Source: Escherichia phage ph0021. From it: a stretch of 64,000 bases of DNA. Of this stretch, positions 3,640-38,099 are shown one piece after another (positions within the stretch are counted from its first letter, which is position 1; each line of letters opens with the position of its first letter). The notes under the pieces are model-generated. The model was not told where the DNA came from and searched no databases. It saw only the letters and a program-made list of their open reading frames with translations. The stretch is taken from the sequence record OP557970.1. One strand, written 5' to 3'. Made by a program: the position numbers and the translations under genes.

Positions 3640-4440
3640 ATGGCAGTAGTTGGTGTTCCTGGTTGGATTGGTAGTTCATCCGTAAATGAAACAGGACAAC
3701 GATGGATGAGTCAAGCGGCTGGTCAATTAAGATTGGGTGTTCCTTGCTGGATGAGTCAATTTGCAGGTCGCTCACGAGAAATTATTCATACACTTGGAGC
3801 AGACCATAACTTCAATGGTCAATGGTTCCGAGATAGATGTTTTGAGGCCGGTAGTGCACCTATAGTGTTTAATATTACAGGTGATTTAGTATCATATTCT
3901 AAAGATGTTCCTTTATTCTTCATGTACGGGGATACGCCTAATGAATATGTTGTTCTTAATATTCATGGTGGTGTTCATATGTGGGGTCGTGGTGGTAATG
4001 GTGGATACACTCACTCAGGAGGCGACGGTAACGGTACACAAGGCGGTCATGTTATTCAAAATGATATCGGCGGACGGCTTCGTATTTGGAACTACGGTGT
4101 TATAGCTGCTGGCGGTGGCGGTGGCGGTGGTATTGCATATCGTCCACACTCAGGGGCAAACTGGCAAGATATCGGTGGCGGTGGTGGTCGACCTTTCGGT
4201 GGCGCTGGCGGTGGCGGTTATTCCGGTGGTGCTGCTTCGTATGAAGGTCCGGGTGGTGGTTATGACTATGGTAACGCACACTCCGGCGCTGGTGGTAATG
4301 CTGGTGCTGCTGGTCAGAATGCATGGTCTGACGGCGGTAAAGTTCTTAAAGTTGGTGTTGGTGGTGCGTCTGGTCATGCAGTGTTTGGATCTTCTCCAAC
4401 TTGGGGTGTTGTTGGAACAATTTACGGACCAAGAGTATAA
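3640..4440 (+). CDS. 38: tail fibre adhesin gp38, T2-type (glycine-rich motifs)
   Basis: 266 aa, conserved N-terminus then several poly-Gly tracts (GGGGGGG, GGGGG) separated by variable segments; located between 37 and t. Confidence 0.8.
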
Positions 4441-4470
4441 TGTGAATAAATACCCTTAAAAGGAGGGTCT

Positions 4471-5127
4471 ATGGCAGCACCTAGAATATCATTTTCGCCC
4501 TCTGATATTCTATTTGGTGTTCTAGATCGCTTGTTCAAAGATAATGCTACCGGGAAAGTTCTTGCTTCCCGGGTAGCTGTCGTAATTCTTTTGTTTATAA
4601 TGGCGATTGTATGGTATAGGGGAGATAGTTTCTTTGAGTACTATAAGCAATCAAAGTATGAAACATACAGTGAAATTATTGAAAAGGAAAGAAATGCACG
4701 CTTTGAATCTGTCGCCCTGGAACAACTCCAGATAGTTCATATATCATCTGAGGCAGACTTTAGTGCGGTGTATTCTTTCCGCCCTAAAAACTTAAACTAT
4801 TTTGTTGATATTATAGCATATGAAGGAAGATTACCTTCAACAATAACTGAAAAATCACTTGGAGGATATCCTGTTGATAAAACTATGGATGAATATACAG
4901 TTCATTTAAATGGACGTCATTATTATTCCAACTCAAAATTTGCTTTTTTACCAACTAAAAAGCCTACTCCCGAAATAAACTACATGTACAGTTGTCCATA
5001 TTTTAATTTGGATAATATCTATGCTGGAACGATAACCATGTACTGGTATAGAAATGATCATATAAGTAATGACCGCCTTGAATCAATATGTGCTCAGGCG
5101 GCCAGAATATTAGGAAGGGCTAAATAA
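4471..5127 (+). CDS. t: holin t
   Basis: 218 aa, N-terminal TM segment, sequence matches T4 holin as remembered (MAAPRISFSPSDILFGVLDRLF...); strong SD AAGGAGG. Confidence 0.9.
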   Translation: MAAPRISFSPSDILFGVLDRLFKDNATGKVLASRVAVVILLFIMAIVWYRGDSFFEYYKQSKYETYSEIIEKERNARFESVALEQLQIVHISSEADFSAVYSFRPKNLNYFVDIIAYEGRLPSTITEKSLGGYPVDKTMDEYTVHLNGRHYYSNSKFAFLPTKKPTPEINYMYSCPYFNLDNIYAGTITMYWYRNDHISNDRLESICAQAARILGRAK

Positions 5128-5400
5128 TTATTTGTTCGTATACATCTCTAGATATCGATATACACCCTCAAAACCCTCGTTGAATTCGTCGATGAGGGTT
5201 TTCTTATCTTCTTGAGTTAATTCAGAAACAATTTTACGGAATGAATTCTGATTTAACTTTCTACCTTCATGCGTTACTCCAATCTCATTCAGAAATGCAA
5301 TAAAATTAGCACGATTCTCAACAATATCTTCTCTGGAAAATTTAATCAAAATAGACGCAACAGTAATAATTTCACGAACTGTATCAATATTTTTATTCAT
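5128..5400 (-). CDS. asiA: anti-sigma70 factor AsiA
   Basis: 90 aa, sequence matches remembered T4 AsiA (MNKNIDTVREIITVASILIKF...); convergent with t. Confidence 0.9.
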   Translation of the reverse strand: MNKNIDTVREIITVASILIKFSREDIVENRANFIAFLNEIGVTHEGRKLNQNSFRKIVSELTQEDKKTLIDEFNEGFEGVYRYLEMYTNK

Positions 5401-29033: not shown

Positions 29034-29224
29034 TTTGAATGCTCTATAATTAATTTTAAAGCTTCTTCACTGACAAAAATTTCGTCAGGACCTTCTATAA
29101 CTTCAACCGTACGAAGTTGATTAGTTAAGAGCTCACATACGAGCTCCTTGTTATAATCTTTAAATAGTTGGTCAATACGTTTCTTATGGGCTTTCTTAAG
29201 CTGACGCTTATTTAAACGAGCCAT
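29030..29224 (-). CDS. hypothetical protein
   Basis: 64 aa, basic. Confidence 0.45.
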   Translation of the reverse strand: MARLNKRQLKKAHKKRIDQLFKDYNKELVCELLTNQLRTVEVIEGPDEIFVSEEALKLIIEHSK

Positions 29225-29742
29225 TAATAACCTCGGTCTTGACGGGCGAAATTTTCGGCATTTTTCAGATAATAAAGTTTAAAGATTTCTTCTGCTGTAA
29301 GACCAAGACCCTGGAACATATTCAGAACGAAATGAAGAATATCAATCATTTCAAATTTAATTTCTAACTGGTCTTGTGGAGACAAATCAGTAATCAGAGT
29401 TTCACGACGTTCACCATGCTGCGACTTCCAAGGTTTCCATACAGCAGATGCGTCTTTTTCACCATTACTCATACCACCAAGAGAAGTCAGAAGTTCACGG
29501 AATTCATCATCAATATAATCTTTCTGATTGCGTAGCCAATCAACAACTTCACCGGCAGTAGCCAAGTCATCAGGATGACGATTATATTCAGGTTTATCTT
29601 TAGCTAAACGAACCTGTAAAGATTTCTGCATGTCAAGCATTACCTGTAGCGGGTCTTTTTCATCACCGAGAATATCCCAATACTCATTTTGAGCTTTATC
29701 AGCGCCTTCGATCAGTTGACTACATTCGTTGAAATGTGGCAT
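29224..29742 (-). CDS. 56: dCTPase/dUTPase gp56 (MazG-like)
   Basis: 172 aa, matches T4 gp56 length and order. Confidence 0.85.
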   Translation of the reverse strand: MPHFNECSQLIEGADKAQNEYWDILGDEKDPLQVMLDMQKSLQVRLAKDKPEYNRHPDDLATAGEVVDWLRNQKDYIDDEFRELLTSLGGMSNGEKDASAVWKPWKSQHGERRETLITDLSPQDQLEIKFEMIDILHFVLNMFQGLGLTAEEIFKLYYLKNAENFARQDRGY

Positions 29743-34518: not shown

Positions 34519-34881
34519 TTAAAAGAATTTAAATTTTTTCTTTGACCTTTTATTAAATGCATCTTGTAGTTGCATTGTAATACATTTTTCTACATGAGGA
34601 GCTAACTCAGCTTTTCTTTCTTGGTCAAGAACAGCAAAGTCCATTACAACCTTTCCATCAACCCAATCCAGTTTAGTTACATACACTATATGTGTAGAGC
34701 CATCTTCTAGTTTAATGACAATCTCCTGGATAACATTTTCCATAGCAGATTTAATTATCTTAAGAGACTTATTAAAAAGACGTTCTTTTCTTTCTTCTTC
34801 CCCCTCCGAAGAGGGGGATTCATCGATAATTTCTAGATCTAAATCTAAATCATCTTTATTCATTAAATTCTTCCATATCAC
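34519..34881 (-). CDS. 40: head vertex assembly protein gp40
   Basis: 120 aa ORF between uvsX and 41 as in T4. Confidence 0.55.
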   Translation of the reverse strand: MIWKNLMNKDDLDLDLEIIDESPSSEGEEERKERLFNKSLKIIKSAMENVIQEIVIKLEDGSTHIVYVTKLDWVDGKVVMDFAVLDQERKAELAPHVEKCITMQLQDAFNKRSKKKFKFF

Positions 34882-36037
34882 TTAACTGCTCGAGGTCAGT
34901 TTCTAAATCAGCAGCTGATTTACTTTTACTTTCTGGAGATTTAAATTTTTCAACCTTTGAGTTAATCAATTCATCAACTTCAGCTTCAACAATTTCATTA
35001 CTATCAATAGCACCTAACTGATAAGCACGTTTAATAGCATCTCGGAATGGTTGATGCTTAAATAAAGGACCCCAGAATGTAGTGCAGTTGGTATCTTTTG
35101 CACGCCAAGATTTTTCTTCGCGAATCATCTCGCCGGTTTCTTCGTCAAGAAATTCACGAGCATACCAACCATTTTTAGGTTTTACTACAAATCCTAATTC
35201 TAGAGCCATATCTAACAATCCAGAATAAGGATCGATACCACCGTCAAATTTAACATCAATAAAGAATTTACTTTTTTCTTTAACGGTACGAGATTTTTCT
35301 ACATTTAGAACAAATTGATACCCCTGAAGATCAGAACCATCTTTAATCTGACGTTTACCGATAATGAATACGGTATCAGCCGAATACATTACGCCTGTAC
35401 CACCTGTCATCACGGTTTTACTAAACATTTCAATTGTTTCAATTGTATGGTTAACCGCAACACATGGAATATTTTTAATGCTAAAATAAGGAGTAACAAT
35501 ACGGAATAATGACTTCAGTGATTTAGCACGAGTCATATCTGCCACAGATTTTTCATTCAAGGCATCTTCCGTTTCTTTCTTAGAAGCCATATTACCGATT
35601 GAGTCGATGAATACAATAACCTTTTCACCACGCTCAATAGCTTCAAGCTGATTCACCATATCAATTTTCAGCTGTTCAACTGACTGAATTGGCGTATGAA
35701 TTACTCGTTCCGGGTCAACTCCCATGGATCGCAAATAAGCTGGAGTAATACCAAATTCACTATCATAGAATAGACAAACCGCGTCAGGATATTTGTTCAA
35801 ATATGCCGCAACCATAGTCAAAGACATATTTGATTTAAAGTGTTTAGAAGGCCCTGCGAAAATAGTTAAACCAGACTGCATACCGCCATCAATCGCGCCA
35901 GAAATAGCAATATTAAGCATTGGGATTTTTGTACGGATTACATCCTTTTCATTAAAGAATTTAGATGTAGTCAGTTCAGCAGTCATTTTAGAAGTGGAAG
36001 CTTTAATCAAACGGGATTTTAAATCTGCAATAGACAT
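34856..36037 (-). CDS. uvsX: recombinase UvsX (RecA-like)
   Basis: 393 aa, Walker A GPSKHFKS, matches remembered T4 UvsX. Confidence 0.9.
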   Translation of the reverse strand: MSIADLKSRLIKASTSKMTAELTTSKFFNEKDVIRTKIPMLNIAISGAIDGGMQSGLTIFAGPSKHFKSNMSLTMVAAYLNKYPDAVCLFYDSEFGITPAYLRSMGVDPERVIHTPIQSVEQLKIDMVNQLEAIERGEKVIVFIDSIGNMASKKETEDALNEKSVADMTRAKSLKSLFRIVTPYFSIKNIPCVAVNHTIETIEMFSKTVMTGGTGVMYSADTVFIIGKRQIKDGSDLQGYQFVLNVEKSRTVKEKSKFFIDVKFDGGIDPYSGLLDMALELGFVVKPKNGWYAREFLDEETGEMIREEKSWRAKDTNCTTFWGPLFKHQPFRDAIKRAYQLGAIDSNEIVEAEVDELINSKVEKFKSPESKSKSAADLETDLEQLSDMEEFNE

Positions 36038-36090
36038 TCATTTTTTCCATAGGCATCATTATATTTTCCTCACTGGTTAAAGATAGAGTA

Positions 36091-36120
36091 ATTATAACAC
36101 AATAAATTTAGGCATTAATC
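36091..36120 (-). promoter_or_regulatory. candidate middle promoter for uvsX (TGCCTAA box, 11 nt, TATAAT)
   Basis: Minus strand AATGCCTAAATTTATTGTGTTATAAT in the intergenic region. Confidence 0.35.
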
Positions 36121-36963
36121 AACTGCTATCGGATGAATAGCATTAAACTTATGAAATGCTTCTGATTTTTCTTTACGTGAAACACACATGCGAAGAACCT
36201 TTAGTGGTTCATCTTCTTCACCCAACGATTTTCGTTTTTCAATATTAGAAGTTTTCCAACGAGCTTGTTCTGGAAACTCTCTATTGATTTGCTCAAGCGC
36301 TCTATTATGTTTAGAATTACTACGAATTGAACTGCACCCGCCAGGAGCTTGTGCTTTTCCAGATACAACCAGATATTTGAACAAGGCCAAATGCGGATAA
36401 CCTTGATTAATTAAATTGAGAAATGCATACATATCTTCGCATAAATCAATTTTTCCATACCCAATTTGTTCTGTCGTAAGTTTTCCGAGGTCATACCATG
36501 TATTCGTGAATCCATATGAATTTTCACGATAATTACCCCAAGATGAAGTAATTTTAAAAATTGGTAAACGAGCATGGCCATGATAATATCCGCAATCCAT
36601 GGCATCCTCAACATATTGAATCAATTCATAGAACTGTTCACGAGTTAATTGATTGACTTTATCTACACAACGACGATCATCTCTTTTTCGCATTGAACTC
36701 ATACGAATAGTAGTATCATCGTCAATCATCCAAATTCGTTGACCTGCATACATATCAGTAATTGCTTTACGAGTTCCAGAAATTCCATTTACATCATCAG
36801 GAATAGTTATAATTTTAGCTTTAGACCCATAGGCATCATAATAAGCTTTTTCTTCGTGTTCACGTACTACAATATGTGGTTCATAATCAGTCGGAAACAT
36901 ATCAAGGGCAGAAACTGCCCCTACACGTTGATAGCTTGGAATTACGAATTGAATCATTTCCAC
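36115..36963 (-). CDS. DNA glycosyltransferase at T4 beta-gt position, probably beta-alpha-glucosyltransferase type
   Basis: 282 aa (not the 351 aa T4 beta-gt), DxD motif WMIDDDTTI. Confidence 0.55.
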   Translation of the reverse strand: MEMIQFVIPSYQRVGAVSALDMFPTDYEPHIVVREHEEKAYYDAYGSKAKIITIPDDVNGISGTRKAITDMYAGQRIWMIDDDTTIRMSSMRKRDDRRCVDKVNQLTREQFYELIQYVEDAMDCGYYHGHARLPIFKITSSWGNYRENSYGFTNTWYDLGKLTTEQIGYGKIDLCEDMYAFLNLINQGYPHLALFKYLVVSGKAQAPGGCSSIRSNSKHNRALEQINREFPEQARWKTSNIEKRKSLGEEDEPLKVLRMCVSRKEKSEAFHKFNAIHPIAVD

Positions 36964-37694
36964 TCACCTTTATAGTCTTTTTTCACAATATGAGTTTCGC
37001 CAGTATTCCACCAATGATCAACCAAGTAAAAATGACGAGAATATACATGAAGACTTCCAACATTCCATATAATAGAACCTGCTTTATACTGACGAGTTGA
37101 ATCGCCGGCATTCAAATCAGATACTAATTTATCTAATACGTATTTTTGCCATGCATAATCATTACGGAATCCGAAGACCACGTCATTTGAGCGCATGCTT
37201 ACTACTGCATTGACTTTCTTATCACGAATCAGGTACTGTACTGTATTAGTACACATGAAATCTGACATACCATCTTTATTGTAGTCAAATTGCATGGATG
37301 GACGAGTATAAATCATGATACCACGTCGAGAATCAGGATTTTGACCAAGTTCAGCTAAACACATATCATACTGGGCATAGTTATCTTCTGACCAAATAGC
37401 CCAACCATAATTCGAGTTAATTTCGCCTTTAGAAGATGCTACCTGCTGCCAAATCTTTGGTGTTTCGCCTGGAATATCTTTAACAAACAAGCTCTTAGAT
37501 TTATACCATTCAAGTTCACGCTGAATGTATTCATCATTAAGAGCGCCAAAAATAAACGGTTCATCTGCTACAAATGATGCGCCAATAATTTCAATAGTTT
37601 TAACACCGGTTTTATCAACTACGAAATCTTTTTCTTTTAATGCAAGCCCCAAATGAAGACGGATTTCTTCAACTGTCATAGAGTCACTAATCAT
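36954..37694 (-). CDS. 42: dCMP hydroxymethylase gp42
   Basis: 246 aa, thymidylate-synthase-like fold, matches T4 gp42. Confidence 0.9.
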   Translation of the reverse strand: MISDSMTVEEIRLHLGLALKEKDFVVDKTGVKTIEIIGASFVADEPFIFGALNDEYIQRELEWYKSKSLFVKDIPGETPKIWQQVASSKGEINSNYGWAIWSEDNYAQYDMCLAELGQNPDSRRGIMIYTRPSMQFDYNKDGMSDFMCTNTVQYLIRDKKVNAVVSMRSNDVVFGFRNDYAWQKYVLDKLVSDLNAGDSTRQYKAGSIIWNVGSLHVYSRHFYLVDHWWNTGETHIVKKDYKGEWK

Positions 37695-37704
37695 TTAAAC
37701 CTCA

Positions 37705-37851
37705 ATTGATACATTCATATTTAACTTGTAACAGTAATAAGCTCCAACCTAAAATAATAGTTGGAATCATAAGAGGAACCGTTACACTATAGTATATACT
37801 TATTATAATCATCAAGATTAAAAGCAACACTGCTATAATTTTGCTTTTCAT
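37705..37851 (-). CDS. small membrane protein (~48 aa)
   Basis: ATG overlaps imm stop; strongly hydrophobic; read by hand. Confidence 0.4.
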
Positions 37852-38099
37852 TCCTTCTCTCTGATGATAATTACTTGATTTGGTTGTGCAGACTTTTTAG
37901 TTTCACCAGCAATTGACCAAATAAATGTAATAAACCAACCAATAATTGACCAGTTAAACAGTAAAGATGTGAAAAAGATTCCTACTGTCGATTTTGACCC
38001 ACGCATCAAGGCAATAAACCATGGAAGCATGTATATAATAATAGCCAACACACCTGAAACTAAAACCATAAAAATTGAACCTGCTACTAAAGTTTCCAT
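37848..38099 (-). CDS. imm: superinfection immunity protein Imm
   Basis: 83 aa, two TM segments, position downstream of 43 region. Confidence 0.7.
   Translation of the reverse strand: METLVAGSIFMVLVSGVLAIIIYMLPWFIALMRGSKSTVGIFFTSLLFNWSIIGWFITFIWSIAGETKKSAQPNQVIIIREKE

Follow-up and report, generated by a model that had tools for sequence, protein, structure and literature searches.

The open reading frame between uvsX and gene 42 in the window, i.e., the whole 64,000-nucleotide stretch of Escherichia phage ph0021 DNA analysed here, very probably encodes a T2/T6-type beta-glucosyl-HMC-alpha-glucosyltransferase (ba-gt, also named ggt or TAGT), an inverting DxD enzyme of the GT-A fold that belongs to the Pfam TAGT family and would act within the pathway proposed below. 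Published work already covers this gene, from the reaction and fold class of its product to where it occurs, and its assignment is routine annotation. The arrangement in which an alpha-glucosyltransferase gene (a-gt) accompanies ba-gt is the common, majority state in the genus and is not unusual: a 2026 survey found alpha-GT together with TAGT to be common and the alpha plus beta pair of T4 to be rare (6 of 753 genomes), with TAGT paired with alpha-GT or beta-GT in most T-even-type phages (PMC13216743).

Gene boundaries and genomic context

The minus-strand ORF at 36115-36963 spans 282 aa when read from a GTG, and its translation in the ORF listing includes GQRIWMIDDDTTIRM/WMIDDDTTI. It is confirmed as a genuine gene, a chance reading frame being excluded by its full-length conservation in 474 phage records and by the Pfam and PHROG thresholds that it passes. 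The original prediction had described a 282-aa protein with the WMIDDDTTI motif between uvsX and gene 42; locus and motif stand, whereas the length is likely 280 aa. A Shine-Dalgarno-like GGTGAG has the GTG at 36963 as its final triplet, an ATG follows 5 nt after this motif, and the 843-nt, 280-aa version is the one annotated in the OR584013, T2, Solly and Geo records, that is, in every annotated relative inspected. Based on this ribosome-binding-site geometry and on the annotation in relatives, the GTG start was dropped in favor of the ATG, and the transferase most likely has 280 residues, as read from the sequence (Table 1).

Table 1. Coordinates in the window of the transferase gene, its motifs and the genes of its neighbourhood and pathway.
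Feature	Position	Strand	Remarks
uvsX	34856-36037		Pfam T4_UVSX_C and RecA
Beta-glucosyl-HMC-alpha-glucosyltransferase (ba-gt / ggt / TAGT) CDS	36115-36957	-	Probable start at ATG 36957, giving 280 aa; Pfam, PHROG and orthology
D79-D80-D81 codons, DxD motif in WMIDDDTTI	36715-36723	-	Presumed divalent-metal / UDP-sugar diphosphate site
Shine-Dalgarno-like GGTGAG	36963-36968	-	5 nt upstream of the ATG at 36957; read from the sequence
Gene 42, dCMP hydroxymethylase	36954-37694	-	97% identical to T4 gp42; Pfam Thymidylat_synt
Alpha-glucosyltransferase (a-gt), 400 aa	48350-49552	-	Pfam PF11440 AGT, E=2.7e-235, profile positions 1-355 of 355; PHROG 2888
Gene 56-type dCTPase/dUTPase	29224-29742	-	Pfam dUTPase_2, 29.2 bits (cutoff 22.9)

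The transferase gene lies directly downstream of gene 42, the same slot that it occupies in T2 and T6, and its ATG (36957-36955) shares two bases with TGA (36956-36954), the stop codon of gene 42, the two forming ATGA. This overlap implies that ba-gt would be co-transcribed with gene 42 and makes translational coupling possible. A promoter scan around the gene returned 15 promoter-like matches, where shuffled sequences led to an expectation of 9.3 +/- 2.5; none of the 15 was counted as a sign that the gene has its own promoter, and more weight was given to the ATGA overlap.

A hairpin on the minus strand (36903-36923) lies within codons 12-18 of the transferase gene, a short way downstream of gene 42, with a 9-bp G+C-rich element (GGGGCAG-UUU-CUGCCC) and 15 pairs in the minimum free energy fold; together with its surroundings (91 nt) it folds at -25.8 kcal/mol (z=-3.2 vs shuffles). 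The hairpin sequence is identical in T6, and a 'terminator' is annotated under this gene in one relative, fPS-65. Such an element could serve for attenuation or stabilisation of the gene 42/ba-gt transcript.

On the other side, a 77-bp spacer (36038-36114) with a TGTGTTATAAT-like element separates uvsX from the transferase gene. The GIY-YIG homing endonuclease gene segA, which lies between uvsX and b-gt in T4, is absent from this place in the window, as it is in T2 and T6. Farther away are the partners of the enzyme in the hmC pathway. The a-gt gene, which the original prediction had placed in the window with a length of 400 aa, is confirmed by its full-length match to the Pfam AGT model, and the counterpart of the gene 56-type dCTPase/dUTPase in OR584013 is annotated as a nucleoside triphosphate pyrophosphohydrolase. 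The window combines alpha-gt and the hmC pathway with the absence of a T4-type beta-gt.

Over its full length the window corresponds, in reverse complement and bar one base, to OR584013.1 ('Pseudomonas phage PsgM02F', a 165,282-bp T4-like genome) from 72488 to 136487. The sole difference is at window position 38051, a C in the window and a T in OR584013.1, and falls within the ORF of imm (superinfection immunity; 37848-38099, minus strand). The OR584013 record gives Pseudomonas coronafaciens pv. garcae as the host and coffee leaves as the origin of what is a typical Tequatrovirus genome; either this host assignment looks doubtful or the host range would be surprising. After OR584013, the genomes nearest to the window over 25 kb are Escherichia coli Tequatroviruses at about 97% identity, FL08, Solly and teqdroes among them.

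Orthology with ggt of T2 and T6

The 849-nt stretch has full-length megablast matches, at a nucleotide identity of at least 90%, in 474 phage records, many of which annotate it as beta-glucosyl-HMC-alpha-glucosyltransferase. The same name is carried by PHROG 842, which the protein matches with E=9.8e-89, and the OR584013 CDS annotated as this enzyme is 100% identical in nucleotide sequence. In the Pfam search, residues 5-209 align with positions 2-205 of the 205 in PF20691 (TAGT, TET-associated glycosyltransferase) at 38.7 bits, above the gathering cutoff of 27.5 and across the whole model.

Direct comparison places the protein as a full-length ortholog of ggt in both T2 and T6. It is distinct from the T2 enzyme at 4 of 280 residues (R11H, K46R, S60A and P251S, window to T2), from the Solly and KAW1E185 enzymes at 2 (K46R and S60A, window to relatives), and from T6 ggt by 5 substitutions, 256 of the 261 residues annotated in MH550421 being identical (98%). 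K46 and S60 of the window contrast with the R46 and A60 of every close Tequatrovirus allele compared. The homology to the T2/T6 enzyme at the same locus, by which the original prediction was to be checked, is therefore present, with 4 residue differences from T2 and 98% identity to T6. The likeness extends beyond the protein of 280 aa to the slot between uvsX and gene 42, the ATGA overlap and the partner a-gt gene.

Fold and DxD motif

The three aspartates D79, D80 and D81 are all invariant in the homologue alignment (A2), whose most distant members are 32% identical. In the structural model they come directly after the strand formed by residues 74-77, the fourth beta strand, in a block (71-80) with a pLDDT of 87. 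The enzyme had been proposed to be of the DxD type, and both the invariance of the motif and its place at the end of this strand support that view. A metal-binding role for such a motif is general knowledge for GT-A enzymes, and by analogy the DDD of the window's enzyme would presumably hold a divalent metal that binds the diphosphate of UDP.

A search of PDB chain sequences with the protein returned chance matches only (best E=0.89), no structure of the family being detectable by sequence, and the fold assignment therefore rests on a model. The word-indexed protein search gave 11 cluster representatives, and the alignment used for prediction holds 10 sequences, to 32% identity; owing to this shallow alignment the AlphaFold2 model is only moderate (pTM 0.71, mean pLDDT 69). 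Its N-terminal 80 residues are confident, with a block pLDDT of 84-95, while pLDDT drops below 50 at residues 126-150 and in portions of the C-terminal third. The model matches GT-A/GT2 transferases, i.e., it adopts the nucleotide-diphospho-sugar transferase fold, with BcsA (10.2), WrtF (9.9), AvpGT (9.3), GlfT2 (9.1), TarP (8.8) and TarS (8.2) as matches. Identity to GT2-family GT-A enzymes such as the BcsA catalytic domain, TarP/TarS and AvpGT is only 7-17%, and the window's enzyme differs from them in its acceptor, a sugar on double-stranded DNA, and in a C-terminal third that finds no confident structural counterpart among them (pLDDT below 50 in several segments). Our result agrees with a published AF3 analysis, which also gives the GT-A class (PMC13216743).

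Proposed pathway and product

Based on the above data, we propose the following pathway. The action of gp42 and dCTPase would lead to phage DNA built with 5-hydroxymethylcytosine, gp42 making the hmC precursor for the DNA substrate of both glucosyltransferases and dCTPase keeping unmodified dCTP out. Alpha-gt would then use UDP-glucose to attach glucose, through an alpha linkage, to part of the hmC residues, creating the acceptor for the enzyme studied here. The latter would add a second glucose, also from UDP-glucose, in beta-1,6 linkage onto the alpha-glucose, to give alpha-gentiobiosyl-hmC. Formation of a beta product from an alpha-linked UDP-sugar would imply that the enzyme is an inverting one, in keeping with its GT2-like fold.

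The assignment of the second glucose to this enzyme follows from its orthology to the T2, T6 and Solly enzymes, and we infer by analogy that it catalyses the same reaction as these relatives. In close relatives, the enzyme is known to add glucose to alpha-glucosylated hmC, yielding gentiobiosyl-hmC (PMC13216743; PMC13160076). Deletion of the gene from T6 leaves only alpha-glucosyl-hmC, and the mutant is more sensitive to the glycosylase Brig1 and has DNA that is a substrate of BapA (PMC11078745; PMC13160076). Tequatroviruses of the Durham Collection that have alpha-GT and TAGT and are devoid of beta-GT were found by HPLC/MS to contain 5-hmdC, alpha-5-glucosyl-mdC and alpha-5-gentiobiosyl-mdC, with no beta-glucosyl form (PMC13390438). 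By the same analogy, the DNA of the present phage should contain hmC, alpha-glucosyl-hmC and alpha-gentiobiosyl-hmC, and no beta-glucosyl-hmC. The original prediction of alpha-glucose and gentiobiose as in T2/T6 is thereby supported.

Extent of gentiobiosylation

Phages with this gene set differ in the proportion of the two sugars. The DNA of T2, which has the same gene pair, is about 70% alpha-glucosylated and about 5% gentiobiosylated (PMC13160076; PMC11078745), despite an intact ORF. The Durham Collection (Solly, EH2 and others) shares with the window the alpha-GT and TAGT set and the lack of beta-GT; the HPLC/MS profile of Solly shows about one third 5-hmdC and about two thirds alpha-5-gentiobiosyl-mdC, whereas Geo, EL and BGP have a different mono- to di-glucosyl ratio, Geo displaying an intermediate 1:2:2 pattern (PMC13390438). 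The Geo enzyme is intact and has 9 residue differences from that of the window. The T2 values and the intermediate state of the Geo-type phages, together with the stable hairpin in the 5' end of the gene, which could limit expression though T6 has it too, are consistent with a gene that is weakly active as in T2, so that the DNA would be mostly mono-alpha-glucosylated with a few percent gentiobiose. We regard this as unlikely, since the window keeps R11 and P251, which are H and S in T2, R11 being invariant in the family alignment, and since its enzyme is 2 residues from that of Solly, a phage with about two thirds gentiobiosyl-hmC (PMC13390438) and one of the closest genomes over 25 kb (97%). 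The consensus residues that the enzyme has at all invariant family columns and its nearness to the Solly enzyme make a T6/Solly-like pattern, about two-thirds gentiobiosyl, appear more likely than the T2 pattern of about 5%; the underlying comparison of alleles from T2, two T6 records, Solly, KAW1E185 and Geo is suggestive, not decisive.

The substitutions in T2 are of interest in this respect. R11 (codon 11, window 36925-36927) adjoins the IPSY nucleotide-binding loop. The seven T2 records in the collection and SV76 share the same first 143 nt, from which it follows that R11H is common to all T2 records; P251S (codon 251, window 36205-36207) was read in T2 MH751506 only, where the gene is at 4286-5128 of the stretch examined. 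Over this stretch the nearest wild isolates show 99.3% identity, with a single mismatch, and KAW1E185, the isolate that was read, has R11. As a speculation, R11H might be tied to the low (about 5%) gentiobiosylation of T2. A broader proposal, drawn from a handful of compared alleles, is that the allele of this gene largely sets the extent of di-glucosylation, with R11H and P251S making T2 a hypomorph and explaining its about 5% vs the about 72% of T6; we consider this possible but rather doubtful. If it is true, the consensus allele of the window predicts a T6/Solly-like, mostly gentiobiosylated genome.

It is worth noting that alleles departing from the consensus are found in the reference records of T2 and T6, and that the T6 lesions differ between two independent records. 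In T6 MH550421, codon 10 (4951-4953 of the stretch examined; window 36928-36930) is changed from CAG to the amber TAG, which is why the product is annotated with 261 aa from M20. In T6 AP018814, one Asp of the DDD is lost in frame (about 1035-1043 of the stretch, at the DDD codons of the window), giving WMIDDTTI and a protein of 279 aa. The RefSeq record NC_054907 agrees with AP018814 in coordinates and in its 99.3% match, and probably carries the AP018814 allele.

Alternative specificities

PF20691 is a broad family, to which the match of the window's enzyme is modest (38.7 bits), and solitary TAGT homologues occur in 288 of 753 phage genomes (PMC13216743), from which variation in acceptor specificity across the family is deduced. 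For distant TAGT homologues in phages that have neither alpha-GT nor beta-GT, action on the base itself (hmC) or transfer of a sugar other than glucose is suspected. For the present enzyme we hold either to be very improbable: it is 4 residues from that of T2 and 98% identical to that of T6, the product of both being gentiobiosyl-hmC; deletion of the T6 gene leaves alpha-glucosyl-hmC (PMC11078745); and alpha-gt, which makes the required acceptor, is present.

T4 b-gt (PF09198) resembles the window's gene in its map position, in acting on hmC-containing phage DNA and in forming a beta linkage, and both enzymes use UDP-glucose. They differ in fold, GT-B in T4 vs GT-A here (PMC13216743), and in acceptor, which is the hydroxymethyl group of hmC for T4 b-gt and would be the glucose of alpha-glucosyl-hmC for the window's enzyme. 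The claim that the beta-gt slot is filled by a shorter, non-T4 enzyme holds: BLASTP of T4 beta-gt against the transferase gave no similarity (best E=2.2), so that the homology that would contradict it was not found, and a Pfam search of the protein had no match to PF09198 at E<=1. Furthermore, tblastn of T4 beta-gt against the complete 165,282-bp OR584013 genome had a best E of 3.7, which argues that there is no T4-type beta-gt anywhere in that genome. That the gene encodes a divergent or shortened T4-type beta-glucosyltransferase, placing the first glucose in beta linkage straight onto hmC, is suggested by the map position between uvsX and gene 42, as for T4 b-gt, and by the labels 'putative beta-glucosyltransferase' or 'b-gt' in some deposited records, and is refuted by the sequence and fold tests, which show neither similarity to T4 beta-gt nor its GT-B two-domain fold and leave this reading with a next to negligible probability.

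Significance for phage defence

Which host defences are able to attack a T-even phage depends on the kind of sugar that its hmC carries. Brig1 excises alpha-glucosyl-hmC, and gentiobiosylated T6 DNA is not degraded by it in vitro (PMC11078745). The glucosidase BapA is unable to strip gentiobiose (PMC13160076), and enzymes of the GmrSD/BrxU type still cut gentiobiosylated DNA (PMC13216743; PMC13390438). Since the sugar type governs defence in this way, recognizing the alpha-gt plus ba-gt set in the present phage is useful for predicting its host range and restriction sensitivity.
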